IMG/VR virus record: IMGVR_UViG_3300045988_010208 | DNA length: 64,000 nucleotides | Origin: a virus | Taxonomy: Duplodnaviria; Heunggongvirae; Uroviricota; Caudoviricetes | Reading direction: 5' to 3' (one strand) | Part shown: piece after piece, positions 18,016-40,436 of the stretch | Layout of the letters: each line of letters opens with the position of its first letter | Position numbering within the stretch: position 1 is the stretch's first letter | Notes under the pieces: model-generated | Database searches by the model: none | Told to the model about the DNA's origin: nothing | The model's input: the letters and a program-made list of their open reading frames with translations, nothing else | Translations under genes and position numbers: made by a program

Positions 18016-18531
18016 TCAACTTAGTTTTGCAAACTCTCCGTGGAGTTTAATAGCAGCTTCACAGTAAGCTTTATGGGCTTCTTCTTCTGTTGTGTATGTC
18101 CCTATATGTATAGTCTTGCCATTATGGTTAATCTGGGCTATCCACTTACCAGACTTACTTCTACTTGTGCCTTTTAAGTTTTTTGATGTTCTAGGTTGTC
18201 TCCTATTAGACATGTTCTGTTCTTTTGTGGCCTCTCTTAGATTGTCCCAAGCGTTATTCAAACCATCTCCATCTTTGTGGTCAATGTGTTTATCAGGCCA
18301 CTTGCCTGTCATCCAGAACCAAGCAATTCGGTGATTGCCTGTCCTGTATCCTAAAATCTGTGTGTGCATATACACACCAGACCTTGTGCGCTTAATTGCT
18401 CCGGCTGGGCTTCCAATAACCACCCTACTACTGTGTGGAGGTCTGCCAATCCATGTTAAGACCCCTGTTTCGGGGTCATAATCTAACCAAGATTTTAACT
18501 GTTCATGTGTGAATCCACAATCTCTCATCAA
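18016..18531 (-). CDS. HNH homing endonuclease with AP2-like DNA-binding domain
   Basis: 171 aa; HNH motif HIDHKDGDGLNNAWDNLREATKEQN; C-terminal SGKWIAQINHNGKTIHIGTYTTEEEAHKAY resembles AP2 domain; start overlaps the DNA polymerase stop; paralogue of 28096-28620. Confidence 0.8.
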   Translation of the reverse strand: MMRDCGFTHEQLKSWLDYDPETGVLTWIGRPPHSSRVVIGSPAGAIKRTRSGVYMHTQILGYRTGNHRIAWFWMTGKWPDKHIDHKDGDGLNNAWDNLREATKEQNMSNRRQPRTSKNLKGTSRSKSGKWIAQINHNGKTIHIGTYTTEEEAHKAYCEAAIKLHGEFAKLS

Positions 18532-21257
18532 TGCACCTCATACCAGCTCTTACCAACCTTACCTGTGCCAGTTACAAGCGTCTCACTCTTCAAACCTAAA
18601 TTCTTAGATGCCTGACCATACATCCAGTCAGTTATGGCTTTAACTTCTTGAGTCATACTTTCTGGGCATTCCCAACTGTTTTCATCGTGGTATGCCAGCA
18701 AAAGCCTAGCACCGATTGCTGGTTTTCGTCCATTTAATTTTGTCAATCCTTCTTCACATGCTCTTCTACAAGCAAGGTTAATTGCCTCATTTTGAATCTG
18801 AGCCTCTGAACCCATGAGCAAATAATTCAATAACTTATGTGGAGATTTACACCACAACCAAGCTCCAGCAACCTTTACAAAACCCCCTTTAGAGATTGCA
18901 GCAGTCTTACCAAACACCTCTTCAAGTGCCTTTTTAGTTGCTTTGTAGTCAGCTTCCAAGTCATCTAGCAGCTTCTTAATTTTAGGCAAACGAATAAAGT
19001 AAGTCTGTTTAGTCAGCGCACCTTCCTGAGTAGTTGCAGCTTTAATCGTCTTAGCAAACTTCTCATCACCTGCACCGAACAGCAGTGCATAGATACCATT
19101 CTTAGCTTTCTTACGACCTTTGCTAATCTCATGAAGAAGATTCTCATCCTGAGTAGCTCGACAAGTCAAGATGTCCTGCTCATCATTCAAGCTAAAGTAA
19201 ATGCTATTCAGTGTATGCGCATCAGTCCCTGAATAGACAACGTACAGGTCATTCTCAGAGTCATAGCGAAGGTACTTATCAATTTCTGGGTTGAGGTACT
19301 CATCAAAGTGTTTGCAGTAATAGCGTCCATCTTCTTGACGAATAAACTCAATCTCTTCTTTACCTTGCGTTACCGCTTTGGTGAAGTCTTTATCACCCAT
19401 AAAGTTACAAAGCAGAACTAGCTGGGCTGAGTTCATATCTACAGAGACAACGTTAGTACCTTCCTCACAAATCCACACTGCCCTCATTGGTTCCCCATAG
19501 ACAGCAGCCCCAGACGGTACGTTTACAATACCATATTGTGTCATACGTCCAGTTGAAGTACCAAACACCATTGCACCAGCACTAAGGCGACCATCAGGAC
19601 GAATCTGGTTCAACCAACCTTTTTCATCATCCTTTGAGTTCTCAATAGTTCTGCGTCGGTGCATCAAAGTATAGTACTTAGCAATCTTCTGTCCAAGCTC
19701 ACCTTCAATCGTATCATAGGATGATTCGGTAAGTTTTGGTGAAGTACGGATTAAGCAAGGCTCAAGCAAATCTGTGTATTTCTTCACAGACCAGTTATGC
19801 TCAATGTACTGGACACCTTCATGTTCAACATAACTCAAACCACACCGCTCAACCATTTCCTGCCACTTAGGATGTTTTGTAATCATCTTTTTATTGTCTT
19901 TGAAACGACAAACTTTGACAGGACGACCATCTGAGTCTTTCTTGTAGTTCCAGTCATCTGGAATCCAACCAACTGATTTCAAGTAGTCTTTAACAACTGC
20001 TACCTGAGTCATACGAGAAACTTCAAACTCAATTGGTGTATACGGTGCATCAATCAAACCTGTGTAGCGACTTGACTCAAGTTCAAAGTGGTTAACAACG
20101 TGACTGTTATAGTACTTCACAGTTTTAACTGTTTTTACTGGCTTCCAGTCTTTGCATTTCTTACCAATCTTTGCGTTCAACTCATTGCAAATTGCACGAG
20201 CATCCTTCATTGCTACAAAGCCTTCCTTGTACTCTTCACCAGTTACAGTGTTGGTTGGTGTATAGCAATTTCTCTTTTCAATGTTAAAAATCTTTGTAGT
20301 TGGCTTACCAAATGGCTTGATTTCATATGTTTGCATCTCACCATTACGTACCTGCTGACGATACTTTGTCTTAGGGTACTTGGTAATTCTTTTCAGTCCA
20401 TCTGCATGACCAAATGTTTCAACATACTCATTCCAAGCTTTTGCAAACTCTTCTCCAGTGACTTTACCTTTGGTCTTAATAGTTGGAGGAAGATGTGGTT
20501 CAACCTCTGAAGCAAGCTCATTAGTCAACTTGTCAAGTTCCTTTACATGGAACTCCATAAGCTCTTTATCAGCTTTCCAACCATTAATAGCTTGTTGACT
20601 CATCCAGAAAGATGTTTCTTTAGCTCGCATGTAGGTTTCATAAGTGTCTATACCACACTTCTTAAGCTTGAGATACTCATTATCAAGTGCCCGTTTAGTT
20701 TTGGCGTTAATACGGATATCTTCTACAACACGAGTGAAGATTTCTGCATTCCACACACCCCAATGTTCAATCTCTGGTTTACGGACACCAACACGAGCAC
20801 CCCATGCAGCCAAGCCATGAGCACCTTTATAACCCTTTGGAGTTGGTCTATCCATCCACTGAACACGAGACTGGATAAGAGAGTCCTGAAAGAAATTACT
20901 CCACGGTTTACACTTTGGATTATCAAAGTTCCATAAATCAGGTGCAATGTGATTGAAAACCCACCAGTCATAACCGAGACCATTATGGATGCAAAGACGT
21001 TTTGCCTTTAACGCAAATTCAACACCTTCACGTAAACCACCTTTGATGTACTTAGTGTACTTGTGACCGAGGATAGGCTCATCTGTAAAGACCCATACAG
21101 GTGGCTCTTCATCGTCAGATTTATAGTCTGCGAAAGCCATTACGTGAACTTTAGTGAACTCAAGGAGTAAACCATCAGTTTCTGTATCACCAACCAAGTG
21201 TAAGTTTTTAAAATCTACGTTTTCCATTTTTACTCCCTCTAAAATCATTAACCTCAT
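18528..21257 (-). CDS. DNA polymerase, family A, with 3'-5' exonuclease domain
   Basis: 909 aa; exo motif VGDTETDG; Pol A motif B RKKAKNGIYALLFGAG; motif C LAYHDENSWE. Confidence 0.9.
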   Translation of the reverse strand: MRLMILEGVKMENVDFKNLHLVGDTETDGLLLEFTKVHVMAFADYKSDDEEPPVWVFTDEPILGHKYTKYIKGGLREGVEFALKAKRLCIHNGLGYDWWVFNHIAPDLWNFDNPKCKPWSNFFQDSLIQSRVQWMDRPTPKGYKGAHGLAAWGARVGVRKPEIEHWGVWNAEIFTRVVEDIRINAKTKRALDNEYLKLKKCGIDTYETYMRAKETSFWMSQQAINGWKADKELMEFHVKELDKLTNELASEVEPHLPPTIKTKGKVTGEEFAKAWNEYVETFGHADGLKRITKYPKTKYRQQVRNGEMQTYEIKPFGKPTTKIFNIEKRNCYTPTNTVTGEEYKEGFVAMKDARAICNELNAKIGKKCKDWKPVKTVKTVKYYNSHVVNHFELESSRYTGLIDAPYTPIEFEVSRMTQVAVVKDYLKSVGWIPDDWNYKKDSDGRPVKVCRFKDNKKMITKHPKWQEMVERCGLSYVEHEGVQYIEHNWSVKKYTDLLEPCLIRTSPKLTESSYDTIEGELGQKIAKYYTLMHRRRTIENSKDDEKGWLNQIRPDGRLSAGAMVFGTSTGRMTQYGIVNVPSGAAVYGEPMRAVWICEEGTNVVSVDMNSAQLVLLCNFMGDKDFTKAVTQGKEEIEFIRQEDGRYYCKHFDEYLNPEIDKYLRYDSENDLYVVYSGTDAHTLNSIYFSLNDEQDILTCRATQDENLLHEISKGRKKAKNGIYALLFGAGDEKFAKTIKAATTQEGALTKQTYFIRLPKIKKLLDDLEADYKATKKALEEVFGKTAAISKGGFVKVAGAWLWCKSPHKLLNYLLMGSEAQIQNEAINLACRRACEEGLTKLNGRKPAIGARLLLAYHDENSWECPESMTQEVKAITDWMYGQASKNLGLKSETLVTGTGKVGKSWYEVH

Positions 21258-21423
21258 ACATTACTGCAAAAAATTATAAAAAGCAAGTTGACAATGCACT
21301 TGACAAGGTGTTAATCTTTGCGAAGTGGGTTTTTACTTAAAAGGTTACTTAACAGTTTAACTATACAGATACTTTAAAACTCTTAAAAGATTATTTAATA
21401 GCTTTTAAAAAGCTTTAAAGTAT

Positions 21424-21440
21424 AACGTATAGAATACGTT
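21424..21440. promoter_or_regulatory. palindromic candidate operator in divergent intergenic region
   Basis: AACGTAT-AGA-ATACGTT inverted repeat in the 227-bp AT-rich region between DNA polymerase (-) and 21485 (+). Confidence 0.3.
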
Positions 21441-21484
21441 AAGATAAAAGATTAAAACTTAATAGTTACTTAAAAGAGGCTTAC

Positions 21485-21907
21485 ATGCAGAAAATGTTTG
21501 TTCACCCAGACATAGCTGACTTTGTTAGAGCTTTGCAGAAGTTGGAAGAACTTGACATTGCTGCTCAACGGGAATATGTTCACCATCACAGGAGAATGGT
21601 TGATATACAACATGAAATAGAGTTATCTGAAAACTATGAAGATGACTTAAAATGCTCTGTATTTGAGCATATGAAAGATGTTGCTACAGCGAGACGTAAA
21701 GCTAAAGACACAGTTGCTTTACTAGATTCTCTTAAAAAGAGGTTGCAAAGTGGTACAGACCTGTGTAATCTAGCGTCACTGATTAACGATGTTGAAACTT
21801 CTTGGGATAGGCACTATTATCCACGTTCTGAAAAGACACTTGACTTTTCTTCATCAGAAAACTTAAAATGTTCTAGAAAGAAGCTTAACCAACTGAGAGA
21901 GAAATAA
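21485..21907 (+). CDS. hypothetical protein
   Basis: 140-aa ORF, first gene of the plus-strand block. Confidence 0.4.
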   Translation: MQKMFVHPDIADFVRALQKLEELDIAAQREYVHHHRRMVDIQHEIELSENYEDDLKCSVFEHMKDVATARRKAKDTVALLDSLKKRLQSGTDLCNLASLINDVETSWDRHYYPRSEKTLDFSSSENLKCSRKKLNQLREK

Positions 21908-21908
21908 T

Positions 21909-22709
21909 ATGAATATCGATGTAGAAAAGATGCTTGAAGAAAAAGGTATTGACGAAGCGTTCTTAATCAATGCCGTAGAAAGCATGGCTATGATTCTTCG
22001 TGGCAACAACTACACAGAACAGTTTATGCCTGCAAGTTATAACTTGCCTGAAGACAAGTCTGATAACGGTGCTTTTGCAGAACAGGTCAACATGATGCTT
22101 TGCGACAAAACACTCGCTTTAGCATCTATCGTTGTAGGTGTTGATGCTCTTGCAGAGTTCATTTTTTATGAGATGCAGAAAAATGACTATATTGCCATGA
22201 CCACTGAAGAAAAAGACTTGCTACTACTCGCAGGTAATGATGAACTAATTGACCTGTTAATTTCATCAACAAGTGCTGTTATGGCTGCTCTTGAGAAGCG
22301 TATGGAAGAGAAACTTTCACGATATGAAAAACTTGATTGGGGCGTAGAAGAACTAAACCCACGAATCAAGGAGATTATCCAGCAAACTAAAGAGTCTTTG
22401 GAAGAAGCTGTTGAAAATGACTCTGTAGCTGATATAGAACCACTTCAGGTGAAAGTTGCACTGATGATTCCAGCTATCTCTACGATGATGAATATCGTTG
22501 CACTAATCCAGCTTTCACAGATGATGGGTGTGAGTATTGAGTTCATTGAGGAGATGACTGGCGGTGTCAGTATGCAAGCAATCAATGATGTTTTGGTGAA
22601 CATTGGTGCTTCAATCATTGAAGAGAAACTGCGCATTAACTTCGGTGATGATTTTGTGAAGCAAATCTCAGCTATGGCTGAAAAAGAGTCTGCTGAGCAA
22701 CTGCACTAA
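21909..22709 (+). CDS. hypothetical acidic protein
   Basis: 266-aa ORF; followed by a terminator-like hairpin. Confidence 0.4.
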   Translation: MNIDVEKMLEEKGIDEAFLINAVESMAMILRGNNYTEQFMPASYNLPEDKSDNGAFAEQVNMMLCDKTLALASIVVGVDALAEFIFYEMQKNDYIAMTTEEKDLLLLAGNDELIDLLISSTSAVMAALEKRMEEKLSRYEKLDWGVEELNPRIKEIIQQTKESLEEAVENDSVADIEPLQVKVALMIPAISTMMNIVALIQLSQMMGVSIEFIEEMTGGVSMQAINDVLVNIGASIIEEKLRINFGDDFVKQISAMAEKESAEQLH

Positions 22710-22727
22710 GCCTTTATAAATCTTACA

Positions 22728-22753
22728 AGCCTCCTTAGTTGGGGGCTTTTTAG
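22728..22753 (+). terminator. intrinsic terminator
   Basis: AGCCUCC-UUAGUU-GGGGGCU hairpin (one G-U pair) followed by UUUUU. Confidence 0.55.
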
Positions 22754-22770
22754 TAATTAATGGAGATAAA

Positions 22771-23514
22771 ATGAGTAAAATCATCGCATTTACTGGAAAG
22801 GCACGTTCTGGAAAAGACACCTCATGTTCTATTGTGAAGAACATCTTAGAAGATGAGTACGGCTACAATGTTGAAGTAATGGCCTTTGCAGACAACCTTA
22901 AACTATCTGCATCAAAGATATTTGACTTGACTTGGAATGACCTGTACGGTGAAACTAAAGAGACTCCACAGGTTTTTGACTTATCATATCCTGAACTGAT
23001 GTCAAAAGTTACGGAAGCTATGGAGTTCACCTTCAGAGATGAACGTTACCATATGGACTTCAAGCTTATGTCAGAGTTAACCGGACGACTAATCATGGAG
23101 CTTAAGAAGGTTGCTAAACCGACTCTATTGACACGTCTGGGGTTTAGCAAAAAGTATAAATTCTCATCAAGACAAATTCAACAGATTTGGGGTACTGAAG
23201 TTGTCCGTAAAGTAATGGGCGACAAGTTCTGGTCTAAAGACCTTGAAAAAAGAATGGTTATATTCCATGAAATGTGCTCACTTAGAAATCAATATGGTTT
23301 TGTCTTAATCAGTGATTTAAGATTTGACTCTGAAGCTGAATGGCTGAGTAGATTTGCACACCAAACTATTGAAGTAAAAAGAGACAATGTGGACAAAGTT
23401 TCATCACATGTTTCAGAAAATGGGATTTCTACAAAATATGAGCGTGACATTATTCATAATAATGGTACTCTTGCAGACCTTGAGAACAAGCTAAGAGCCA
23501 TCATTAAAGTTTAA
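22771..23514 (+). CDS. deoxynucleoside monophosphate kinase
   Basis: 247 aa; N-terminal P-loop IIAFTGKARSGKDT matches the T4 gp1 dNMP kinase N-terminus pattern. Confidence 0.7.
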   Translation: MSKIIAFTGKARSGKDTSCSIVKNILEDEYGYNVEVMAFADNLKLSASKIFDLTWNDLYGETKETPQVFDLSYPELMSKVTEAMEFTFRDERYHMDFKLMSELTGRLIMELKKVAKPTLLTRLGFSKKYKFSSRQIQQIWGTEVVRKVMGDKFWSKDLEKRMVIFHEMCSLRNQYGFVLISDLRFDSEAEWLSRFAHQTIEVKRDNVDKVSSHVSENGISTKYERDIIHNNGTLADLENKLRAIIKV

Positions 23515-23522
23515 AAGAGAGA

Positions 23523-23723
23523 ATGAAGATGAGAGTAAAAGACAATTTTAAAGTTATTGACCACCGTTTAGTGGAACTCTCATCTCTTTCCAATGAGGTA
23601 ATGATTGAACGTCTTAAGAGAGTTGAATCACGAAGGAAAGAGATTGCAGATGAAATTCATGAACTGGACAAGATTGAAAATGGATTAAAAGCAGAACTAC
23701 AACGAAGAGGTGCTAATGTCTAA
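23523..23723 (+). CDS. small coiled-coil protein
   Basis: 66-aa ORF, charged and helical. Confidence 0.35.
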   Translation: MKMRVKDNFKVIDHRLVELSSLSNEVMIERLKRVESRRKEIADEIHELDKIENGLKAELQRRGANV

Positions 23724-25701
23724 AGGTCGTAAATTGAAAGAGGCTGGTCAGTTTATTGGTCATTGTGCATGTCCACGTTGTGGTTCATCAGATGCTGGTT
23801 CAATCTATCATCATGACGATGATTCTTATTCGATGACTTGCTTTAGCTGTAACAAAGGTTTCCCAGAGTGGGATTTTGATAAAGGGCAAATCGTGAGCAC
23901 TTATTCTACTGGTTCAGACAATAAAAACCGTACTTTCCGTGGAATGGATTTAGTCGATGTAAAAGAAAACCTTGAAGCAATGGACTTGAAAGACAGGAAG
24001 ATTCCTGCAAAAGTTCTTGAGCGTTTGGGTATTAAGGTTGACATTGACAGTGATGGTGAAATTGATGCGCATTTCTATCCAACTTACAAACGTAATGAAG
24101 ATGGTAAGCTAGAGCACGTCGGTTACCGTGTACGTCATCGTTATCCAGAAGACCATCCAAAAGAGCACCTACGCGGTAAGCTAAAAGACTTCTCAGGTGG
24201 TGTTGGAGACATTAAAGGTGAACTGGCAATGTTCGGTTCATGGATTGCTCCAGAAGGTGGTAACCGTCTATTCATCTGGGAAGGTGAGATGGAATGTGCG
24301 ACAGCAATCTATATGACTTCTCTTGCGATTAAGGACAAATCTCGTCGTAAGAATTACTGTCACGTATCTGTTCCATCAGGTGCAAACATTAAGTCTATCA
24401 AAGACAACTATCAGTACATCACATCATTTGACGAGATTTACTTGTGCTTTGATAACGATGAAGCAGGTGCTAAAGCTACTAAAGAGGCTGCTGGCATCCT
24501 CCCTATCGAAAAGGTTCGTTTGTTCCAGTATCCAGAGGGTGTAAAAGACCTTAACGAATGGTGGACAAAGTTCTATAAAGAGAAAGATACAGTTCTGGAA
24601 GGATTTAAGCAGCGTATCTACAATGCACCCCGTTACTGCCCTGCTGGTATCAAGAACTTCGCAGATGGTTTTGAGGCAATGAAGAATCGTGGTCAGATTC
24701 CATTGATTCCTTTCCCAGAATCTTTCGGAGATTTGAACAGACTGACTTATGGTGGTTATGGTCTAGGTGAGATTACAACTCTGGCAGCACCATCTTCAGT
24801 GGGTAAATCAGCATACACTCGTGAAATGATTTACACTGCTTGGAAAGATACCGATTACAATATTGGTGTAATTCCTGTAGAGGATACCTATGAAGAGTTG
24901 ATGGAGATGCTCTGTGCAATCCACCTGAGCAAGCAGATTTCTGAGATTCCTTATGACGAACGTGATTGGGATGAATTGAAGGAAGCACATGCAGAACTGT
25001 CTAAAGGTCGTCGTATCCACATCGTTGACCATCAAGGGGCAATTGACCAAGATAACTTGCTGGAATTTGTTGACTATCTTGTTAACAGTTTAGACTGTAA
25101 GATTATTATTCTTGACCCTATTACGTTGGCTCTGTCACGTTCAGATACGGATGAAGAGGAAGTTTTGTCTGAGCTATTGCGTCGTTGCAAACGCTACCAG
25201 TATGCACAGGTGAACGTCTGTCACGTTCGTAAGAGTGCAGGTGGTCAGAAGGCTAACTCTGAAGGTGGAGATATCTCTGAAGAGGATATTAAAGGTTCTG
25301 GTGCGTATTTCCAGATTTCTATGAACAACATCCTGTTAATGCGTAACAAAGTTGACCCAGACCCTGTTAAGAAAAACTTGACAAAAATCAAGCTAACTAA
25401 ATGTCGTCGTCACGGTAAGTCAACGGGTATTGCTGGTCATACTTGGTACAATCCAGATACAGGACGCCTCATCAAAGCATCTGGTTGCGGAGTTGACATT
25501 GATGGTGCAGCAGAAAATATTCGCCAACAGTTTGGTATTGGTGAAGCTGAAGACCATTACGATGACTCTTTGCCACATTATGAGGATGAAGTATTTGACC
25601 GTGAGACTGGTGAAGTCTATACTGAAGAGCAGCGCCAAAGCTCAACGATTCCACCTGTATTAAGTGAGGATGCAGATGACTGCCCATTCGAAACTGAGTG
25701 A
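23710..25701 (+). CDS. bifunctional DNA primase-helicase (T7 gp4-like)
   Basis: 663 aa; N-terminal zinc finger CPRCGSSD...CFSCNKG; central TOPRIM-like region; C-terminal DnaB-type Walker A LAAPSSVGKSAY. Confidence 0.85.
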   Translation: MLMSKGRKLKEAGQFIGHCACPRCGSSDAGSIYHHDDDSYSMTCFSCNKGFPEWDFDKGQIVSTYSTGSDNKNRTFRGMDLVDVKENLEAMDLKDRKIPAKVLERLGIKVDIDSDGEIDAHFYPTYKRNEDGKLEHVGYRVRHRYPEDHPKEHLRGKLKDFSGGVGDIKGELAMFGSWIAPEGGNRLFIWEGEMECATAIYMTSLAIKDKSRRKNYCHVSVPSGANIKSIKDNYQYITSFDEIYLCFDNDEAGAKATKEAAGILPIEKVRLFQYPEGVKDLNEWWTKFYKEKDTVLEGFKQRIYNAPRYCPAGIKNFADGFEAMKNRGQIPLIPFPESFGDLNRLTYGGYGLGEITTLAAPSSVGKSAYTREMIYTAWKDTDYNIGVIPVEDTYEELMEMLCAIHLSKQISEIPYDERDWDELKEAHAELSKGRRIHIVDHQGAIDQDNLLEFVDYLVNSLDCKIIILDPITLALSRSDTDEEEVLSELLRRCKRYQYAQVNVCHVRKSAGGQKANSEGGDISEEDIKGSGAYFQISMNNILLMRNKVDPDPVKKNLTKIKLTKCRRHGKSTGIAGHTWYNPDTGRLIKASGCGVDIDGAAENIRQQFGIGEAEDHYDDSLPHYEDEVFDRETGEVYTEEQRQSSTIPPVLSEDADDCPFETE

Positions 25702-26103: not shown

Positions 26104-26110
26104 TTAGTAT

Positions 26111-27095: not shown

Positions 27096-28142
27096 ATGGA
27101 GAAGTACACATTAACAAAACTTCCCGATTCAGTTACACATGTTTTTATTGACTCTGACAGCATTGCCTATAAAGGTGCTTGTGTAGTTGAGAAAGCAAAA
27201 TATAAATATGTCAATAAACTCACAGCAGAAGAATCTGATTCGTTTGATAATGCAAAAGATGCTGCAAGATGGTTAGCAGACCAGAGAATCCTTGTGGAAG
27301 AGCTTGGTCTGACATTTGATGAAGATGAATGGGAAAGACAGACTTGGAAAGAAGCTAAGAGTGAAAAAGAAGCTATCATGGCTACTCAACAGGTGCTTCA
27401 GGAATGGCTTAAGGTTGTTGGTAAAAAAAGAACTTGGGTAGGTTATTTAACAGAGAAAGGTGTGCATAAACATAAAGACATTAAAGGTCTTGAGCACCAA
27501 TATCAAGGTAACCGTAAAGATGCTGTCACACCAACACACTTAGTTGCTTGTCGTGAATATCTTCTGTCAAGACCAGAGTTCAAATTGATTCTTGATGGAT
27601 TTGAAGCTGACTCTATCGTTATTGCTAAAGCTGAAAAGATGGGTAAAAAGGCTGCCTTAATGAGTATTGATAAAGACCTTCGCCAAGCTGAAGGGACTTA
27701 CTGCATTGATATGACCTATGAAAAGTCACCTTTGATTTTCATTGCTGACAACAACGTAGGTGAAATTTGGGATTGCCCAATAAAATCGACACCAAAAGCT
27801 AAGAAGACAGTTGGGGTAGGTTTTAAATTTCTTTGCTATCAAGCCGTGGCTGGTGATAATGCGGATAATTATTTTGGCTTAAAAGGTGTTGGCAAGGTTA
27901 CTATAATGAAAGCCCTTGAGGGTAAAACCACTTACAAAGAGTGTCTTGATGCAATTTATGAGCTTTATGCTAAGAAAGAGTCATACACTTATGTCTCGTG
28001 GGATGGTCAAACAATTACCAGAACACCTTTAGAGTTAATGCAGCAACACTTTTTCTTAGCTTATCAGGAAAGAAACAAGAAAGACGATTTCACTTTTGAT
28101 AAGTATGGGTGGACACCAAATGTTAACTCAACAAACTCTTAA
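27096..28142 (+). CDS. putative 5'-3' exonuclease / flap endonuclease
   Basis: 348 aa; N-terminal acidic FIDSDSIAYKG and H3TH-like GLKGVGKVTIMKALEG; position in replication module. Confidence 0.5.
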   Translation: MEKYTLTKLPDSVTHVFIDSDSIAYKGACVVEKAKYKYVNKLTAEESDSFDNAKDAARWLADQRILVEELGLTFDEDEWERQTWKEAKSEKEAIMATQQVLQEWLKVVGKKRTWVGYLTEKGVHKHKDIKGLEHQYQGNRKDAVTPTHLVACREYLLSRPEFKLILDGFEADSIVIAKAEKMGKKAALMSIDKDLRQAEGTYCIDMTYEKSPLIFIADNNVGEIWDCPIKSTPKAKKTVGVGFKFLCYQAVAGDNADNYFGLKGVGKVTIMKALEGKTTYKECLDAIYELYAKKESYTYVSWDGQTITRTPLELMQQHFFLAYQERNKKDDFTFDKYGWTPNVNSTNS

Positions 28143-28620
28143 AGAATACCTGCACTATGACCCCGAAACAGGGGTCTTTACTTGGTTAGTTGGTAGAAAA
28201 GGTAAGGCCAAAGCTGGCTCAGTAGCAGGTCTTAAACATCATAGTGGTTATATCTATATAAAACTCTTCGGAAAAAGATATGCAGCACACAGACTGGCAT
28301 TCTTGTATATGAAAGGATACCTCCCAAAATTTGTTGACCACAAGAATGGTATCAGGCACGACAACTGGTTCGACAATTTGAGAGAGTGTAGCAGGTCAGA
28401 CAACAACTGCAATGCAGTCAAAAGAAAAGATAATAAGTCTGGTGTGAAGGGTGTATATTACCACAAGCAAAGAGGTAGATGGGCTGCACAAGTCAAGCAT
28501 AATAAAGTATGCTACCATCTAGGTTTATTTGACTCTATCACTGAGGCTGAATCAGTTGTCAAAAAGAAAAGAGAAGAACTCCATAGAGAGTTTACAAATC
28601 ACGGAGAAGCTCATGAATGA
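28096..28620 (+). CDS. HNH homing endonuclease with AP2-like domain
   Basis: 174 aa; VDHKNGIRHDNWFDNLRECSRSDN HNH motif; paralogue of 18016-18531 (shared YDPETGV..TW and GKW/RWAAQV motifs). Confidence 0.8.
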   Translation: MISMGGHQMLTQQTLKEYLHYDPETGVFTWLVGRKGKAKAGSVAGLKHHSGYIYIKLFGKRYAAHRLAFLYMKGYLPKFVDHKNGIRHDNWFDNLRECSRSDNNCNAVKRKDNKSGVKGVYYHKQRGRWAAQVKHNKVCYHLGLFDSITEAESVVKKKREELHREFTNHGEAHE

Positions 28621-29117
28621 TTAAAGTTAAAGGTTTTGGGAGTTGCCCCACTTATGGTCACTGGATTTCACTATGTGGTGAAGTTGACCCAGCAAAGCAC
28701 TTTGGTTTTGTCTACCTAGTGTACTGCAAAAAGACTGGACAGTACTATTTGGGTAAGAAACAGCTTAACAGTGTGACCAAAAGAAAAGTTGCTGGGAAGA
28801 CTCGGAAGAAGGTAGTCACTAAGGAAAGTGATTGGATGACTTACGAGACTTCTTCTGAGTATATTAAAAAAGATATTGAGAGCTTTGGAAAAGAATTTTT
28901 TGACTTTTACATTATCCAAACCTACTACACAAAAGGTGGTCTAGTTTATGGTGAAGCAAACCTTCAACATAAGTTCGATGTAATGACAAAAAGGATTGAC
29001 TCGAAGCTCAGACTCTTCTACAATGCCAATATTGCAGCAATTAAGTTTATTACTAAAGAAACTTATGAAGATGCTGAAAAAAGAATCCATAAGGTAATGA
29101 AAGCAAATTGTGCTTGA
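28617..29117 (+). CDS. putative GIY-YIG homing endonuclease
   Basis: 166 aa; N-terminal GFVYLVYCKKTGQYYLGKK fits the GIY-(x10)-YIG spacing; directly follows the HNH gene. Confidence 0.5.
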   Translation: MIKVKGFGSCPTYGHWISLCGEVDPAKHFGFVYLVYCKKTGQYYLGKKQLNSVTKRKVAGKTRKKVVTKESDWMTYETSSEYIKKDIESFGKEFFDFYIIQTYYTKGGLVYGEANLQHKFDVMTKRIDSKLRLFYNANIAAIKFITKETYEDAEKRIHKVMKANCA

Positions 29118-33031: not shown

Positions 33032-33086
33032 TTTTAACAACTATGAGGGTCGTAAAAGACCCTCTAAAAATAACTTTGGAGAGACC

Positions 33087-33344
33087 ATGAAAGACTTAAT
33101 AGAAAAACATGAGCGACCTATATACTTGCTCCACAAGCCTCGGAAAACGATGTACTATGTAAGTAGCACAGGCATGATGATAAAACAAAAGGATGACTCA
33201 TGGGTTGCTGGTATCTCTTACATCTCTACAGCAGATGGTAAAATCTATGCAAGACCTTATGAGATGTTTAACAAAGAAAATTGGGAAGTTTTAGACAGAA
33301 AACAAGCCTCAGAAATGATAAAGAAAGGAGAAATCACGCTATGA
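33087..33344 (+). CDS. hypothetical protein between nrdA and nrdB
   Basis: ORF-track ORF 33003-33344 trimmed to internal ATG (MKDLIEKHERP..) with GGAGAG RBS, since the longer form overlaps nrdA. Confidence 0.35.
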   Translation: MKDLIEKHERPIYLLHKPRKTMYYVSSTGMMIKQKDDSWVAGISYISTADGKIYARPYEMFNKENWEVLDRKQASEMIKKGEITL

Positions 33345-34414: not shown

Positions 34415-34656
34415 TGACTTATGTAATTTACTCCAAAACTGGATGCCCTCAGTGTGAGACTGCAAAGAATTTTGCAAAAGCTCGTGGTATTGACCATGTT
34501 GTGAGGATGTTAGGGCAGGATTATGAGCTATCAGAACTAATGGATATTGCACAGATGCCAGTTCGTCAGATGCCATTCATCATGAAAACTGATGGACAAA
34601 ACCTAAAACCTGTTGGGACGCTACAGAATTTTATGACAGAGGTGAATAATGCTTAA
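34414..34656 (+). CDS. glutaredoxin/NrdH-like redoxin
   Basis: 80 aa; N-terminal VIYSKTGCPQCETAK CxxC active site; immediately after nrdB. Confidence 0.7.
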   Translation: MTYVIYSKTGCPQCETAKNFAKARGIDHVVRMLGQDYELSELMDIAQMPVRQMPFIMKTDGQNLKPVGTLQNFMTEVNNA

Positions 34657-34855
34657 ACGCATTTGGGAAGGTTTGGTTGTTGATGCACCAGCTATTGTGA
34701 TTGGTATGCTTATTGTTAACCTATTTACTGACTTTGAACAAGGTTCATTGTTTGGAGCCATGTTACTATGGGTTATCTTCGAAATATTAGAGATACAGTT
34801 AGGTATCACTGAAAAACTAAGAGAACTCTTTGCGAAGTTTTCTAAAAAGATTTAA
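34649..34855 (+). CDS. small membrane protein
   Basis: 68-aa hydrophobic ORF. Confidence 0.35.
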   Translation: MLKRIWEGLVVDAPAIVIGMLIVNLFTDFEQGSLFGAMLLWVIFEILEIQLGITEKLRELFAKFSKKI

Positions 34856-34861
34856 AATGAA

Positions 34862-34885
34862 AGGGTCTCTTCGGAGACCTTTTTA
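34862..34885 (+). terminator. intrinsic terminator
   Basis: GGUCUC-UUCG-GAGACC hairpin followed by UUUUU. Confidence 0.7.
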
Positions 34886-34903
34886 GCATGTAAAGGGGCA
34901 ATA

Positions 34904-37048
34904 ATGAACAAAGTACAGATTATTAAAAAGAATGGCTCACTCGAAGAACCTGATATCAAAAAAGTTTTAGCAGCAGTCACAAAGTCAGCTAATAGGGTTG
35001 GGTATAAAGAACTCCCACCAGATGTTACCCAAGCTCTTGAGTCAGCATTTATGAGGATTCTGGTAAAATCCACTAAGCAGAATAATTTGCTAATTTCTGT
35101 AAATGATATTCACAGTATTGTTGAGGGTGCTTTGGCAGAAGTCAATCACGAGATTTATGAATCTTACTCAACATATAGAAATTACCGTAAAGAAGTTGCT
35201 CAAAATTGGGATGAACTCTACCAGAAGACCAGAGATACACTCTTCTTAGGTGACAGAGAGAATGCTAACTTTGACAGCAGTTTAATTTCTACAAAAGGTT
35301 CAATTATTCGTGGTTACCTGACTAAAGAAATCTTTAAACAGTACCATTTAACACCAGAGGAACTTGAAGCCATTGAAAAAGGGTTTATCTATATCCATGA
35401 TTTAAGAGACCTAATTTTTGGTGGTATCAACTGTTGCCTGTTTGACATTGGTAAAGTACTGAAAGGTGGCTTTGAAATGTCTGGCATTGAATATTGTGAA
35501 CCAAAGTCTGTGCTATCAGCCTTACAGGTTATTGGTGATGTAGTTCTTTCAGCAACTGCACAGCAATTTGGTGGCTTTACTTTAGCAGAGATTGATAAGG
35601 TACTTGTACCGTATGCTAAGAAGTCTCTACATTACCATGCTGAAAAAGCAGCGTCTTACGGTATTCCTAAAGAACATTACCACAATTATGTCATGGAGCA
35701 GCTACAGATTGAATTAACTCAAGGTTTTCAGTCTCTTGAAATGAAGCTCAATACTGTACCTTGCAGCCGTGGGGATTTTGCATTCACAACTTTGACATTC
35801 GGGTTACTTGACTCAGATATGTCCAATGAAGATAACCGACTGCAATACATGATTGCAAGTACTCTCCTAGATGTTCGTATGAATGGACAAGGTAAGAGCA
35901 AGAAGCCTGTTGTATTCCCTAAACTGGTTTATATTTATGACCAGAAGAGACACGATGAGAATATCTGTCAAGGCCACCTGTACAGTAAAGCTATTGAGTG
36001 TTGCTCTAAAGCAATGTATCCAGATTTCTTAAGTGTATCTGGTCATGGTGCTGTAGCAGAGGCTTTTGAGCGTTCTGGCAAGGTAATTTCACCGATGGGT
36101 TGCCGAGCGTTCTTATCACCATATCTTAACGATAATGGGGAAGAGTTCTATGTTGGTCGTGCTAACATTGGTGCTGTATCTTTGAACTTACCAATGATTT
36201 ACCAGTATTCTAAAGAGAATGGCTTAGATTTCTGGAAAGAGCTTGATAAGTACCTAGAAATGATTCGCAGCTTCCACAAGAAACGTTACGAAATGATTGC
36301 TAATATGCCAGCAAGTTCTAACCCTCTTGCATTCACACAAGGTGGTCTGTATAAAGGAACTAAGAAGCCTACTGACAGGGTTGGTTGGGATATTGTGAAG
36401 TCTTTCACAGCTTCTTTTGGGGTTACTGCGCTTGATGAGCTGTCTGTTCTTGCTGAAGGTAAACGACTTCATGAAGTTGGAAGCTGTAGTTTTGCATACG
36501 ATGTGCTGGAATATATCAACATGAAGACTGAAGAGTTTAAAAATGAAGATGGCTTCTTATATGCAGTCTATGGCACTCCAGCAGAATCACTTTGTGGAAC
36601 TCAGCTAAAACAGTTCAGAGATATGTTTGGAGTTATCAAGGGTGTTTCTGATAAGGAATACTTTACAAACAGTTTCCATATGAATGTTGCAGCAGACATC
36701 TCACCATTTGAGAAGCAGGACTTAGAAGAGCCATTCTTCCATATCTGTAGAGGCGGCAGAATCCAGTATGTAAGAGTAGCTAACCCAGAAAACTTAACAG
36801 CACTTAAAAGTTGTATTACAAGAGGGATGTTGAAAGGTTTCTATCAGGGACTTAACTTTGACTTAGCAATCTGTGAACATTGTGGTAACAGACCAAAGGC
36901 TGATGTTGAAGAATGTGAGGTTTGTCATTCACACGATATCTCTGTGATTAACAGGGTGTGCGGGTACTTGTCATTCACAAAAATTAAAGGTCAGTCTCGA
37001 ATGAATGACGCTAAGATGGCAGAAATTAAGGATAGGGTTTCTATGTAA
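34904..37048 (+). CDS. nrdD: anaerobic ribonucleoside-triphosphate reductase (class III)
   Basis: 714 aa; C-terminal zinc ribbon CEHCG...CEVC and glycyl-radical motif RVCGYL. Confidence 0.9.
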   Translation: MNKVQIIKKNGSLEEPDIKKVLAAVTKSANRVGYKELPPDVTQALESAFMRILVKSTKQNNLLISVNDIHSIVEGALAEVNHEIYESYSTYRNYRKEVAQNWDELYQKTRDTLFLGDRENANFDSSLISTKGSIIRGYLTKEIFKQYHLTPEELEAIEKGFIYIHDLRDLIFGGINCCLFDIGKVLKGGFEMSGIEYCEPKSVLSALQVIGDVVLSATAQQFGGFTLAEIDKVLVPYAKKSLHYHAEKAASYGIPKEHYHNYVMEQLQIELTQGFQSLEMKLNTVPCSRGDFAFTTLTFGLLDSDMSNEDNRLQYMIASTLLDVRMNGQGKSKKPVVFPKLVYIYDQKRHDENICQGHLYSKAIECCSKAMYPDFLSVSGHGAVAEAFERSGKVISPMGCRAFLSPYLNDNGEEFYVGRANIGAVSLNLPMIYQYSKENGLDFWKELDKYLEMIRSFHKKRYEMIANMPASSNPLAFTQGGLYKGTKKPTDRVGWDIVKSFTASFGVTALDELSVLAEGKRLHEVGSCSFAYDVLEYINMKTEEFKNEDGFLYAVYGTPAESLCGTQLKQFRDMFGVIKGVSDKEYFTNSFHMNVAADISPFEKQDLEEPFFHICRGGRIQYVRVANPENLTALKSCITRGMLKGFYQGLNFDLAICEHCGNRPKADVEECEVCHSHDISVINRVCGYLSFTKIKGQSRMNDAKMAEIKDRVSM

Positions 37049-37055
37049 CATCGAA

Positions 37056-37613
37056 ATGAATTACGAACTAATATATAATGCAATTATTAAGAAGGCACAT
37101 TCTGAAAGGGGTGTGCCTCTTACATACTACAAATGTCAAGGTAAGGGGTATGAAAGACACCATATCGTACCAGTATGTCTAGGTGGCGATAAAATTAGTG
37201 GAGATAATATTGCTTTACTTACACCTAGAGAACACTATATAGCTCATAAATTACTGGTTAAGATGTATCCAAACAATCATAAGTTATGGTTTGCATGGAA
37301 CAGGTTAGCTCATGATGGTTTAGATAGGAAAATATCATCCAGAGACTATGAAAAGGTAAGGGCTTTAAACTCGAAAGCTTTATCTATTGTGAATAAAGGC
37401 AGGGTTTTCACTGAAGAGCATCGAAGACGATTAGGAGAATCCCAAATAGGCAATACAAAGTCAAAAGGTTGTAAAAGGTCTATAGAAACAAGGAAGAAGA
37501 TGTCAGAAGCCGGAAAAAAGCCAAAGAAAAAGAAAACTTGCCCTCATTGTGGCATGACTGGTGGTGCTGGTAACATGACTCGATATCATTTTGACAATTG
37601 TAAGAAAAAATAA
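37056..37613 (+). CDS. HNH homing endonuclease
   Basis: ORF 37005-37613 trimmed to first ATG after the nrdD stop; HNH motif HHIVPVCLGGDKISGDNIALLTPREH; C-terminal CPHCG zinc finger. Confidence 0.7.
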   Translation: MNYELIYNAIIKKAHSERGVPLTYYKCQGKGYERHHIVPVCLGGDKISGDNIALLTPREHYIAHKLLVKMYPNNHKLWFAWNRLAHDGLDRKISSRDYEKVRALNSKALSIVNKGRVFTEEHRRRLGESQIGNTKSKGCKRSIETRKKMSEAGKKPKKKKTCPHCGMTGGAGNMTRYHFDNCKKK

Positions 37614-37777
37614 CCTTATGTAAAACTTGACAAGGTGGTGTGGGTCTTGATAGGCTTACATCACCTTTTTTATTGGATGTTAGATATGGCAGAGAGTATT
37701 ATTGGGTTGTTCATAGGTTCTGTCTTACTAGGGTTCTTTTTAGGACTCTCTTATTGTGAATTGAGAGATAAGTTAAA

Positions 37778-37978
37778 ATGTTTAAAATATCAAAAACGTT
37801 GATATACATACTCCACATTCTAATCTTCTTCTTTGGGGTTAGTGTTATGGTATGGGGTTTTTCAGACCCACAATGGAGTTTATCATATCATGGACAAATG
37901 GATTTATGGTCATGCTTCAAACCATTTTTAGGGTTAGCTATAGCATTCAGTGCATTACCAACTAGGGTGAAATTATGA
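37778..37978 (+). CDS. small membrane protein
   Basis: 66 aa with hydrophobic N-terminus ILHILIFFFGVSVMVWG. Confidence 0.35.
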   Translation: MFKISKTLIYILHILIFFFGVSVMVWGFSDPQWSLSYHGQMDLWSCFKPFLGLAIAFSALPTRVKL

Positions 37979-38370
37979 TTAAGTTGAACCAAAAACAGTT
38001 AGAGTGGGTTAAAGACTACGCCTCAGAGTGCGGCTCTTGCGAAAAGAATCACGTAAAATACTCAACATTCCATACAGTCTTCACATTGTACATCAGCGAC
38101 AACGTTCTAAGCGATTCCGTAGAAGATAGTGTAGCATTACCTAATGAATTACTTGATAAACTAGCTGTAGTCTCTGGAACTTGGTCTGAAGAAGATGGTC
38201 ACAAACTATCTGACGATGTTGTCTTCTACACCCTTGAAAACATCATGAATCCAGAGTACATTATGCTAATGACTTGCGCACAAGATTGTGTACCATTACA
38301 AAACTTTATTAAAGAGCACTGTGAAGAGTTTATTACTAAACAGGTTCCTTGTCAGGTGGTGTTTGAATGA
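37975..38370 (+). CDS. hypothetical protein
   Basis: 131-aa ORF, overlapping start. Confidence 0.35.
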   Translation: MIKLNQKQLEWVKDYASECGSCEKNHVKYSTFHTVFTLYISDNVLSDSVEDSVALPNELLDKLAVVSGTWSEEDGHKLSDDVVFYTLENIMNPEYIMLMTCAQDCVPLQNFIKEHCEEFITKQVPCQVVFE

Positions 38371-38666
38371 GTAAAACAATTCGAAGAAAAGGTTTAAAGA
38401 ACGTTCATGGGCTTTATGAGTGGAGAAATGAGGTACGTAACAGAGAAAACGCTTCAGATGTCTACTTCCATTCTGATATGATGTCCAGAAAAGGTGGCTC
38501 TTATGACTTTACAAGCCAACCTTGTAGAGAGATTAAGAAGGCTACTAAACGTCTTACAAGAACACAAATAAGGCAGCTTTCTAAGACATCTTTCTTAGAT
38601 GAAGACTTTGACATTGATAGTAAGTCCCCAAAGAAAGCTGCTAAGAACACTTATATGTATTGGTGA
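38367..38666 (+). CDS. hypothetical protein
   Basis: 99-aa ORF. Confidence 0.35.
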   Translation: MSKTIRRKGLKNVHGLYEWRNEVRNRENASDVYFHSDMMSRKGGSYDFTSQPCREIKKATKRLTRTQIRQLSKTSFLDEDFDIDSKSPKKAAKNTYMYW

Positions 38667-38675
38667 GGTAACTAG

Positions 38676-39161
38676 ATGAATTACATGGAGATTAGACCAT
38701 TTGATACAGCTAATGGTGAAGGGGTTCGTGTAAGCCTCTTCGTAGCTGGTTGTAAGCATCACTGTGAAGGCTGCTTTAACAGGGAGTCTTGGAAGTTTAA
38801 TGCTGGTAAAGAGTTCACTTATGCAAACCTCTATGGAATCATCCAGTTAATGGGTGACGATGCTGTCAGTGGGTTGTCAATACTTGGTGGAGAACCTCTG
38901 GATGATAGAAATATTCAAGAGGTTACCAACATATGCAAACGTATTAAAACTGTTTATCCAGAGAAGTCTATATGGTTATGGACGGGTTTTCAACTACACG
39001 AAAAAATTCACCTAGATGTGATGAAATATGTTGACGTGGTGATTGATGGTAAGTATGATTCATCTAAACCAACAGTTAAACCGTATCGTGGTTCTGATAA
39101 CCAAAACCTCTGGAGAAAAGAGTATGGGTGGCAAGGCGATTGTCAGTGGAGAGCCGAGTAA
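38676..39161 (+). CDS. nrdG: anaerobic ribonucleotide reductase activating protein (radical SAM)
   Basis: 161 aa; radical-SAM cluster motif CKHHCEGCFN (Cx3Cx2C). Confidence 0.85.
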   Translation: MNYMEIRPFDTANGEGVRVSLFVAGCKHHCEGCFNRESWKFNAGKEFTYANLYGIIQLMGDDAVSGLSILGGEPLDDRNIQEVTNICKRIKTVYPEKSIWLWTGFQLHEKIHLDVMKYVDVVIDGKYDSSKPTVKPYRGSDNQNLWRKEYGWQGDCQWRAE

Positions 39162-39227
39162 GTCTCGTCGTAAAGTAGGTTATCGGTAAAGGCCACTTTA
39201 CAATGCTCTACAGAACAAACTTAGCCG

Positions 39228-39545
39228 TTGGTGTCACTGAAGAAGAACTTAAAACATTTTGTGAAAAGATTGAGAGAGAGATACGAAATGGGAATCTGGA
39301 ATAGTTTTAAAGCAAAAGTAAAAGCAGCACTAGCTTCATTAGGTATGCTCACTGGGGTTGATGTGACTCATCTTATGCAGAACTTTAAGATGGATGAGAA
39401 GCTGGCTAATGAGATTATGAAAAGTATCTATGTAGGCCGTGGTAAAGGTGGTAAGAAACAAGCCCACCGTCCGTCTGGTGCAGCAGCTATTAAACGAGCA
39501 GCTAAGAAAGCTCGTAACCGTAAACGTAATAAGAAGGCTAAATAA
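39228..39545 (+). CDS. small basic protein
   Basis: 105-aa ORF; C-terminal tail KRAAKKARNRKRNKKAK; real start may be the internal MGIWNSF Met. Confidence 0.35.
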   Translation: MVSLKKNLKHFVKRLRERYEMGIWNSFKAKVKAALASLGMLTGVDVTHLMQNFKMDEKLANEIMKSIYVGRGKGGKKQAHRPSGAAAIKRAAKKARNRKRNKKAK

Positions 39546-39547
39546 TC

Positions 39548-39868
39548 ATGAGCAAAGTTTATAACACTCGCAAATTACAGATTTTCGTACTGTGTCAGTT
39601 TATGGCTAAAGAATACAATTTCTACTATTGTGGTACAGGTTTCATTAGCGACGATGATGGCTCATACCTCCCATTCAAAGAAGCTGTAAAGCTCTTTAAT
39701 GGAGAGGAAAGCTCTAAGAAAGATATTGAAAAGGTTAAGCTAACCTACAGCAAGAAAGATAAGAAGATTATCTGCCTAGATAACTTTGTAAAAGTTACTG
39801 GAGAAGCAAAAGAGTTTATGGATGAGAGTGAGATTTCATTCACAAGCATCTTGAAAGTAGCTCAGTAA
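39548..39868 (+). CDS. hypothetical protein
   Basis: 106-aa ORF followed by a terminator. Confidence 0.35.
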   Translation: MSKVYNTRKLQIFVLCQFMAKEYNFYYCGTGFISDDDGSYLPFKEAVKLFNGEESSKKDIEKVKLTYSKKDKKIICLDNFVKVTGEAKEFMDESEISFTSILKVAQ

Positions 39869-39881
39869 ACAGATACTATAA

Positions 39882-39906
39882 GGGAACTGTAAAGGTTCCC
39901 TTTTTT
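39882..39906 (+). terminator. intrinsic terminator
   Basis: GGGAAC-UGUAAAG-GUUCCC hairpin followed by UUUUUUAUUUU. Confidence 0.7.
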
Positions 39907-39920
39907 ATTTTGGAGATAAA

Positions 39921-40436
39921 ATGTATCTGTCAAACCTGAAACGTTCGGCTGCAATGTCAGTTCTAAGACTCAGCTTTGAGGAACGTCAAGAGTTCATTGA
40001 CTCCCACCAATACGACCCTTCTAACTCGAATCACATGGTTCTTTGGAATCGTGATAACTTCCGTGAAAGAGCACTTGTCCGTTATTACCCACACTACACA
40101 ATAGATAACCTGTATGAATGGTGCGTTGTGAAGAACACTATTGCAACACTGAACAATCTTTGCAGGTATACAGGTAAGCAAGCATTTACATTAGGCCACC
40201 ACAAACCTGTTACAAAGGGTGGTGAGCATCACTGCGCAAACTGGTTTATCCAGACTAAACTTGATAACCAGAAGCAAGGGGATAATCTTCTAAGCACACC
40301 TAAGATGACCTATGAAGAGCAAGAGAAATATATCAAAAATAATATGCCAGATGTGCTTGACAACAACTATACAGATTTGGCAATATCTCTCCTGTTGAAG
40401 TTCGAGACAGTTTATAGGGCAACTTACAATGGCTAA
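39921..40436 (+). CDS. putative HNH endonuclease
   Basis: 171 aa; GHHKPVTKGGEHHCANWFIQTKLDNQKQG resembles an HNH core. Confidence 0.45.
   Translation: MYLSNLKRSAAMSVLRLSFEERQEFIDSHQYDPSNSNHMVLWNRDNFRERALVRYYPHYTIDNLYEWCVVKNTIATLNNLCRYTGKQAFTLGHHKPVTKGGEHHCANWFIQTKLDNQKQGDNLLSTPKMTYEEQEKYIKNNMPDVLDNNYTDLAISLLLKFETVYRATYNG

Follow-up and report, generated by a model that had tools for sequence, protein, structure and literature searches.

The stretch of DNA analysed here, which we will call the window, is 64,000 nucleotides (nt) from a virus assigned to Caudoviricetes (IMG/VR record IMGVR_UViG_3300045988_010208). To judge from sequence comparison, the window is a segment of a Felixounavirus (Felix O1-type) genome. 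A query of 24 kilobases (kb; positions 17000 to 41000) matches 284 phage records, 205 of them over at least 80% of the query length, and nearly all of those matches come from Felixounavirus or from other Ounavirinae, with identities of about 95%. The gene order agrees with that of Felix O1: ligase, small open reading frames (ORFs) and DNA polymerase on the minus strand, and dNMP kinase, primase/helicase, exonuclease, a MazG-like gene, nrdA, nrdB, glutaredoxin, nrdD, nrdG, prs and nadV on the plus strand. A first-pass annotation proposed that at least five free-standing homing endonuclease genes (HEGs) are inserted in this region, at the ends of core replication and nucleotide-metabolism genes. 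All five ORFs are present where it placed them. Three carry HNH nuclease signatures and will be called HEG1, HEG2 and HEG4; the other two, a GIY-YIG gene and an HNH-like gene, will be called gene 3 and gene 5. This text is concerned with which of the five are likely to be mobile. The features of the three HNH sites are as follows.

18016 to 18531, minus strand: HEG1, behind the DNA polymerase gene (site 1); HNH_3 at 53.9 bits and AP2 at 38.1 bits (Pfam), phrog_99 at 1e-64
18524 to 19023, minus strand: polymerase 3' end adjoining HEG1; at least three haplotypes, 20-25% apart, mostly at third codon positions
27607 to 28106, plus strand: 3' end of the 5'-3' exonuclease gene, the diverged tract beside HEG2, from flank identities of relatives
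28096 to 28620, plus strand: HEG2, behind the exonuclease gene (site 2); HNH_3 at 47.9 bits, AP2 at 31.3 bits (just below threshold, E-value 2.6e-7), phrog_99 at 3e-75
36964 to 37048, plus strand: recoded tail of nrdD, the last 27 or so codons; about 25 differences from HEG-less alleles
37042 to 37048, plus strand: TATGTAA, left repeat copy, which includes the nrdD stop codon
37056 to 37613, plus strand: HEG4, behind nrdD (site 4); HNH motif ERHHIVPVCLGGDKISGDNIALLTPREHYIAH (colicin-type HH..N..H), NUMOD3 at 23.2 bits, phrog_655 ('homing endonuclease') at 6e-57
37617 to 37623, plus strand: TATGTAA, right repeat copy, at the end of the HEG4 insertion
37632 to 37667, plus strand: intrinsic terminator-like hairpin with a 16-pair stem and a T run, annotated as 'terminator' in the wV8 and Barry records

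The Pfam cut-offs are 24.8 bits for HNH_3, 33.3 bits for AP2 and 20.4 bits for NUMOD3. Both domains of HEG1 lie above them, which bears out its earlier description as an HNH-AP2 gene. DH..N..N motifs are readable in the translations of HEG1 and HEG2, and the AP2 region matches plant AP2/ERF structures. The two genes had been called paralogues, and rightly (37% identity, E-value 2e-29); when the five proteins were compared by phmmer with all six-frame ORFs of the window, no paralogue pair other than HEG1 and HEG2 was found. The HNH motif of HEG4 aligns to the DNases of pyocin AP41 and colicin E9 (E-value 0.003), and a CxxC..H..C cluster is present at the C terminus of this protein. All three genes have an HNH nuclease domain, an ORF of their own outside any intron or intein, and empty sites in colinear relatives. 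All three also have a separate DNA-binding module, which is AP2 in HEG1 and HEG2 (in HEG2 just below threshold) and NUMOD3 in HEG4. Searches of the window with Rfam at the gathering threshold gave no match, hence no intron was detected. PHROGs scans of 30 other ORFs of the window revealed no additional endonuclease genes, and NCBIfam and PADLOC gave zero matches for all five proteins.

Each HEG is a promoter-less, ORF-sized cassette immediately behind a conserved gene (DNA polymerase, 5'-3' exonuclease or NrdD); no convincing promoter of its own was found for HEG1, HEG2 or HEG4. The cassettes are fitted closely to their neighbours. The polymerase TGA lies at 18528-18530, and a TTG start of HEG1 at 18529-18531 overlaps it, confirming the overlap noted earlier. 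There is an alternative ATG at 18526-18528, which gives a TGATG overlap (18526-18530) with 1 nt shared with the polymerase TGA; this ATG, at 18528, is the probable start of HEG1. Relative to the empty allele the inserted DNA is 504 nt (18020-18523), essentially the ORF only. At site 2, 507 nt (about 28107-28613) stand in place of 12 nt in empty alleles. The final 12 or so codons of the exonuclease gene come from this insert, and HEG2 overlaps the exonuclease gene by 23 nt. The likely start of HEG2 is the ATG at 28120, which lies within the inserted DNA. The stop codon of the insert overlaps the start of gene 3 (ATGA), so that the native coupling between the exonuclease gene and gene 3 is restored. 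At site 4 the HEG4 ATG is found 8 nt after the nrdD stop codon (a 7-nt spacer), as had been claimed. The 568 nt inserted here (37049-37616) separate the nrdD stop codon from the nrdD terminator and are bracketed by the 7-nt repeat TATGTAA. HEG-less phages have the terminator hairpin directly after the nrdD stop. HEG4 lies upstream of this terminator and is therefore presumably co-transcribed with nrdD.

The first-pass annotation took the polymerase, exonuclease and nrdD 3' junctions for homing sites and named their comparison across related phages as the way to check this. We compared twelve relatives base by base, with finno (95.4% identical overall to the window) as the empty-site reference for all three insertions. 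The outcome supports the claim for HEG1, HEG2 and HEG4: each is present or absent at identical positions in colinear genomes of about 95% identity, with intact genes and diverged flanks. At site 1, seven relatives have the window-type gene, four have one of two other HNH-AP2 alleles (39-44% amino-acid identity to HEG1), and finno is empty. The window-type gene is found at site 2 in three relatives, two other alleles (55-58% amino-acid identity) occur in five, and four (finno, LF82P9, TH10 and LF82P3) are empty. Site 4 has no other alleles; it is occupied by the window-type gene in seven relatives and empty in Felix O1, finno, LF82P5, LF82P9 and LF82P3. For pairs of sites all four presence/absence combinations are seen, and therefore the sites assort independently. 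For each of the three HEGs, public genomes contain alleles that are identical or nearly so. When full length is taken as at least 80% coverage, HEG1 is present in 50, HEG2 in 43 and HEG4 in 52 of about 260 related records, so each allele occurs in some 17-21% of relatives.

All HEG copies in the twelve relatives are full-length and intact, and their ratios of nonsynonymous to synonymous substitution rates (dN/dS) are similar to those of the polymerase, exonuclease and nrdD genes. The ratios run from 0.03 to 0.33 overall (HEG1 0.03-0.06, HEG2 0.21-0.33, HEG4 0.03-0.12). HEG1, HEG2 and HEG4 are under purifying selection.

The second line of evidence comes from the host-gene sequence next to the insertions. 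It is clear at nrdD. The recoded tract starts right after the RVCGYL glycyl-radical motif, and its changes fall mostly on third codon positions (16-18), with 5-6 amino-acid changes. Over the last 85 or so nt of nrdD the window shares 97-99% identity with every relative that has HEG4 and about 73% with every relative that lacks it; the 100 nt before the tract are 93-100% identical in both groups. Tail haplotype and HEG4 associate perfectly in eleven relatives (six with the gene and five without). In the whole collection a 100-nt tail segment is bimodal: 93 records are at least 95% identical to it, 151 are at 60-90% and none is at 90-95%. We also built a synthetic query in which the precise empty site is joined to the HEG-type nrdD tail. 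At least twelve records (SPJ41, P219, JLBYU32, REP8-12, SWJM-02, Tf and DE7 among them) match it in one piece at 97-98.5%. Records with HEG4 match it in two pieces about 570 nt apart, and those with the other tail in a single piece at about 88%. Among the 60 records listed, none has HEG4 on the other nrdD tail. There are thus three nrdD haplotypes: HEG4 with the recoded tail, the recoded tail without HEG4, and the other tail without HEG4. As a separate observation, the last 45 nt of nrdD (37004-37048) match 23 Vibrio phage records at about 84% (for example the NrdD-like gene of VRU).

A linked flanking tract is also clear for HEG2. The last 500 nt of the exonuclease gene are 91-100% identical in relatives with the window-type or type-B HNH gene and 70-83% identical in those with type C or an empty site, and in the collection this tail is again bimodal (99 records at 90% or more, 156 at 60-80%). 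On the other side of HEG2 the first 200 or so nt of gene 3 are split differently from the exonuclease tail: Felix O1 and VSe11 are at 96-97%, relatives with type B range from 87 to 98%, and 79-90% is seen in LF82P5, in relatives with type C and in those whose site is empty. In LF82P5 the window-type HEG2 and its upstream flank are joined to the other downstream flank, and we therefore place a recombination breakpoint at the HEG2 3' end in this phage. For HEG1 a diverged tract is present at the polymerase 3' end, although it is not strictly linked to the allele. In the collection 34 records are at least 90% identical over the polymerase tail and 255 are at 60-90%. The longest perfect run shared with any relative is 655 nt, with DaR-2019a (18005-18659); it covers HEG1 together with 128 nt of the polymerase tail. 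In the comparison with finno, a 24-kb region is about 95% identical, and those of its 100-nt bins that fall below 85% mostly adjoin sites 1 and 2; the remaining ones are at 16800, 17300-17599, 22100-22299 and 23200.

The divergent alleles at sites 1 and 2 have their ends in common. At site 1 the last 69 nt (18016-18084, the 3' end) are 100% identical in all of them. At site 2 the first 80 or so nt (28107-28188) and the last 55 or so (28558-28613) are near-identical, and the middle is about 60% identical. This suggests that one allele can be replaced by another through recombination within the conserved ends, that is, by cassette exchange.

We think it likely that HEG1, HEG2 and HEG4 are, as predicted, three free-standing HNH homing endonuclease genes, and that the GIY-YIG gene and the HNH-like gene are fixed and not currently mobile. 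What follows about the mechanism is reasoned from known phages. In T4, SegF (gene 56), SegG (gene 32) and MobE bring about intronless homing with co-conversion and localized marker exclusion. If the Seg and Mob enzymes of T4 are a fair guide, an endonuclease of the present kind would, during mixed infection, cut an allele that lacks the HEG, within or close to the host gene's 3' end. Repair would draw on the genome that carries the HEG and would copy the HEG along with a flanking stretch. Clustered and largely synonymous substitutions in this 3' end would protect the allele that already carries the HEG. Over time this may produce a patchwork of occupied sites, empty sites, alternative HNH-AP2 alleles, and HEG-less genomes that retain a HEG-type flank. 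By this analogy we infer cleavage, repair-mediated copying and target immunity for HEG1, HEG2 and HEG4. Diverged flanks like these are what co-conversion or target-site immunity would be expected to leave.

Several points weigh against homing by these three genes. Strict linkage between HEG1 and the polymerase tail was considered and had to be rejected: VSe11 and LF82P9 have HEG1 on a finno-type tail. The patches at 17300-17599 and 22100-22299 adjoin no HEG of the window, and some of the flank divergence could come from general mosaic recombination. Where a genome has the HEG-type nrdD tail and no HEG, two readings fit: the HEG was lost, or this is the background that existed before insertion. 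The nuclease activity of the three proteins is a prediction from conservation only. Finally, the detailed comparison covers just the twelve relatives, and the figures for the whole collection are counts by BLAST coverage rather than a curated table of genotypes.

These points can be put together into a different explanation, in which the three HNH genes are passengers that are inactive or do not home, their patchiness comes from ordinary recombination and deletion, and their flanks are part of general mosaicism. The genomes are indeed mosaic, with other insertions, deletions and low-identity patches away from the HEGs, and the flank haplotype at site 1 is tied to the HEG1 allele only loosely. 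We nevertheless regard this explanation as improbable. The catalytic motifs are intact, every copy is full-length, and the dN/dS values indicate selection on protein function. Divergence is concentrated beside the insertions and has sharp ends. The perfect association of HEG4 with the nrdD tail in the relatives, and its absence from the other tail in the records listed, also argue against passengers.

Another potential explanation is that the HNH proteins are kept mainly for the benefit of the phage, in exclusion of competitors, in initiation of recombination-dependent replication or in regulation of the adjacent genes. Purifying selection on the HEGs equals that on core genes, the HEGs are tightly coupled in translation and transcription to replication and nucleotide-metabolism genes, and several divergent alleles with shared termini are kept at the same site. 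Yet each allele is present in only about a fifth of relatives or fewer, and finno lacks all three, meaning that none of them is required; exclusion of competitor markers, moreover, belongs to the homing mechanism and is no alternative to it. We give this explanation very little credence.

The two remaining genes are of a different kind from the three probable homing endonuclease genes.

28617 to 29117, plus strand: gene 3, a GIY-YIG-domain-only gene of 166 amino acids; Pfam SegE_GIY-YIG (PF19835), E-value 9e-27, 94 bits
39921 to 40436, plus strand: gene 5, 171 amino acids, within the nrd/NAD cluster; phrog_3500 at 3e-93 and phrog_2214 (HNH) at 4.8e-6

Gene 3 was noted as a GIY-YIG-like gene directly after HEG2, and its domain and its ATGA overlap with the HEG2 stop are confirmed. 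The GIY-YIG domain (residues 22-139) retains the GxxY and YxGKK motifs as well as the invariant Glu113 and Asn115. Pfam found no DNA-binding domain, nor any other domain, in its 166 amino acids. The best structural match, a weak one, is the catalytic domain of I-TevI; a sequence search of the PDB gave nothing useful. In its SegE-type domain (PF19835) gene 3 resembles both the GIY-YIG Seg endonucleases and the catalytic domain of I-TevI. Its distribution is not patchy: it is present in all twelve relatives, under strong purifying selection, and at 80% coverage or more in 262 of 298 records, and phages of Citrobacter and Erwinia are among the matches. Panisse, an Erwinia phage of the genus Kolesnikvirus, has a homologue directly after the exonuclease gene and before the MazG-like gene, as in the window. 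We conclude that gene 3 is a core syntenic gene of Ounavirinae and no polymorphic homing endonuclease gene here. The proposal that the HNH and GIY-YIG tandem arose by sequential insertion is not supported, as gene 3 directly follows the exonuclease gene in the HEG-free finno and in Panisse; it is resident there without the HEG, and the tandem is therefore the product of one HNH insertion between the exonuclease gene and an old gene.

The public labels of gene 3 are in conflict. It is called 'NAD synthetase' in the Felix O1 RefSeq record and in phrog_447, 'HNH homing endonuclease' in Panisse and Maleficent, and 'GIY-YIG homing endonuclease' elsewhere. The first of these labels is supported by neither Pfam nor NCBIfam. 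Apparent internal stops in gene 3 proved to be an artefact: a BLAST gap had been translated through naively, and the ORFs annotated there in finno and DaR-2019a are intact.

Gene 5 was described as an HNH-like gene after nrdG. It is a real ORF, though it has no Pfam HNH match at threshold and two ORFs separate it from nrdG (38676-39161). An alignment of its family shows a conserved H-N-N motif (GH93..G100 G101..HH..N107W..DN116), and the predicted topology is strand-strand-helix. Both the motif and this modelled topology are compatible with an H-N-N nuclease. The family is small: a set of 1.84 billion proteins contains only 17 representatives. PDB searches with the single sequence and with a profile returned only spurious matches to protein A repeats, and Foldseek gave no significant HNH match, the HNH domain of Cas9 ranking second at an E-value of 5.4. 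Gene 5 is intact in all twelve relatives (dN/dS 0-0.16) and present at 80% coverage or more in 241 of 257 records. It is a core gene of Felixounavirus and is not polymorphic. Two observations concern the DUF7390 ORF at 39548-39868: one metagenomic protein (P0011, 259 amino acids) is a fusion of DUF7390 to gene 5, and in finno this ORF is labelled 'putative HNH homing endonuclease', a label that no domain supports.

The count of at least five homing endonucleases thus holds for HEG1, HEG2 and HEG4 and fails for genes 3 and 5, which relatives carry near-uniformly at the same sites, with no empty site for either among the twelve relatives. That all five genes are currently mobile, the tandem stemming from two successive insertions, might be argued from the bona fide SegE-type domain of gene 3, from its distant 270-amino-acid relative (P0009, beside a terminase gene in an unrelated contig), which has a C-terminal extension and resembles a typical free-standing HEG, and from the HNH-like motif of gene 5; we consider it highly unlikely, for the distribution largely refutes it, gene 3 has no DNA-binding domain or empty site, and it keeps its place after the exonuclease gene in finno and even in a phage of another genus.

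We would describe genes 3 and 5 as fixed nuclease-like genes that are possibly domesticated, at most ancient and domesticated relatives of HEGs. One could speculate that they descend from homing endonucleases and now serve a core function in Ounavirinae, for example by degrading host DNA, processing intermediates of recombination or replication, or excluding competitors. The endonuclease II of T4 is a GIY-YIG enzyme that degrades host DNA. We regard such an origin and role as possible, though on balance doubtful.

The region has other polymorphisms. An ORF of 99 amino acids at 38367-38666 varies in presence (insertion at about 38381/38408-38643/38648). It matches phrog_1774 and, below threshold, Pfam DUF5499, and it has no nuclease signature. 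Felix O1, DaR-2019a, finno, NRG857CP1 and TH10 do not have it, and in VSe11 all of 37677-38657 is missing. A 186-nt segment at 16717-16904 (a minus-strand ORF of 63 amino acids at 16716-16907, with no Pfam match) is cleanly missing from LF82P5, LF82P9, LF82P2 and LF82P3. The start of the ORF at 39228-39545 (39159-39426) is swapped for unrelated sequences of 245 or 403 nt in several relatives; Felix O1 and VSe11 have an additional 154 nt at 39179-39192, and 37689-37799 is swapped for 355 nt in LF110P4, LF82P2 and NRG857CP1. One low-identity patch (22100-22299) lies within a gene labelled 'minor tail protein' (21909-22709) and another (17300-17599) in the small-ORF region downstream of the polymerase gene; both are 57-83% identical to relatives that are about 95% identical overall. 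VSe11 has inserts of 810 nt in its polymerase gene (2579-3390; window 19081-19087) and of 745 nt in nrdD (20407-21153; window 36101-36105), and PMBT20 has the same kind of nrdD insert. The two VSe11 inserts each hold an endonuclease ORF and a sub-threshold match to a group I intron on the coding strand (E-values 0.004 and 2e-6). The polymerase and nrdD genes of the window are uninterrupted at these places. The 3' end of the Felix O1 polymerase gene, about 900 nt, is of a diverged haplotype though it has no insert. Records named 'Staphylococcus phage SA1' and 'Campylobacter' phage match along the whole of the Felix O1-type region; this points to mislabelled or mixed records.

Homing endonucleases in these phages are not new. 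Felix O1 was described with six copies of HNH endonucleases and no introns (Whichard et al. 2010, PMC3185647), and later comparisons of Felixounavirus genomes list homing endonucleases among the variable genes (PMC8300805, PMC6669636). The finding of three HEGs is a known feature of Felix O1-type phages that the first-pass annotation recognised correctly, over-calling two of its five genes. Felix O1 is the same type of phage with the same gene family: its ORF106 is the same allele as HEG2 (95.8% nucleotide identity), and ORF95 occupies the HEG1 site, though as a different allele (39.5% amino-acid identity). It differs in having no HEG after nrdD and an extra HNH gene, ORF128, between prs and nadV. 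Where Felix O1 has this 513-nt gene the window has a 41-nt prs-nadV spacer (41589-41631), which is therefore an empty site for a fourth endonuclease. Empty sites and flanks, compared here, are not analysed in the 2010 description (PMC3185647).

Other likenesses are with T4. The MobA-E genes (for instance mobE between nrdA and nrdB) are likewise small HNH ORFs between conserved replication and nucleotide-metabolism genes and are patchy in close relatives, and HEG4 is annotated as 'MobE-like HNH homing endonuclease' in the Barry, VpaE1 and BPS17S6 records. HEG1 and HEG2 are similar to I-HmuI-type HNH_3 enzymes, with a weak match to the I-HmuI chain 1u3e. Unlike the T4 Mob genes, those described here belong to the Ounavirinae lineage, with an AP2 DNA-binding domain in HEG1 and HEG2 and NUMOD3 plus a C-terminal Cys/His cluster in HEG4. 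As with SegF, SegG and MobE, the presumed target is in the adjacent conserved gene, substitutions are clustered by the insertion and the flank travels with the HEG, a likeness that here comes from comparative genomics only. In contrast to the T4 cases, the nrdD tract is very short, about 85 nt, with its start exactly behind the glycyl-radical motif, and a sizeable HEG-less class carries the HEG-type tract.

As a concept, all this repeats what T4-type phages have established; it is expected for Felix O1-type phages and of low interest in that respect. The value lies mainly in annotation and phylogenetics. The three HEGs and the adjoining 85-500 nt of host-gene sequence, as mobile or converted DNA, should be masked when Felixounavirus trees are built or when the relatedness of therapeutic phages is judged. 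The labels 'NAD synthetase' and 'HNH homing endonuclease' on the conserved GIY-YIG gene are unreliable. As a secondary reading, the three nrdD haplotypes may represent a complete cycle of invasion, resistance and loss of a phage homing endonuclease within one genus. Some 52 records have the HEG, at least twelve are HEG-less with the HEG-type tail and presumably resistant to cleavage, and most of the remaining ones are HEG-less with the other tail and presumably cleavable. The nrdD site would offer a clean and naturally replicated system for the spread of an endonuclease, resistance of its target and loss of the gene.

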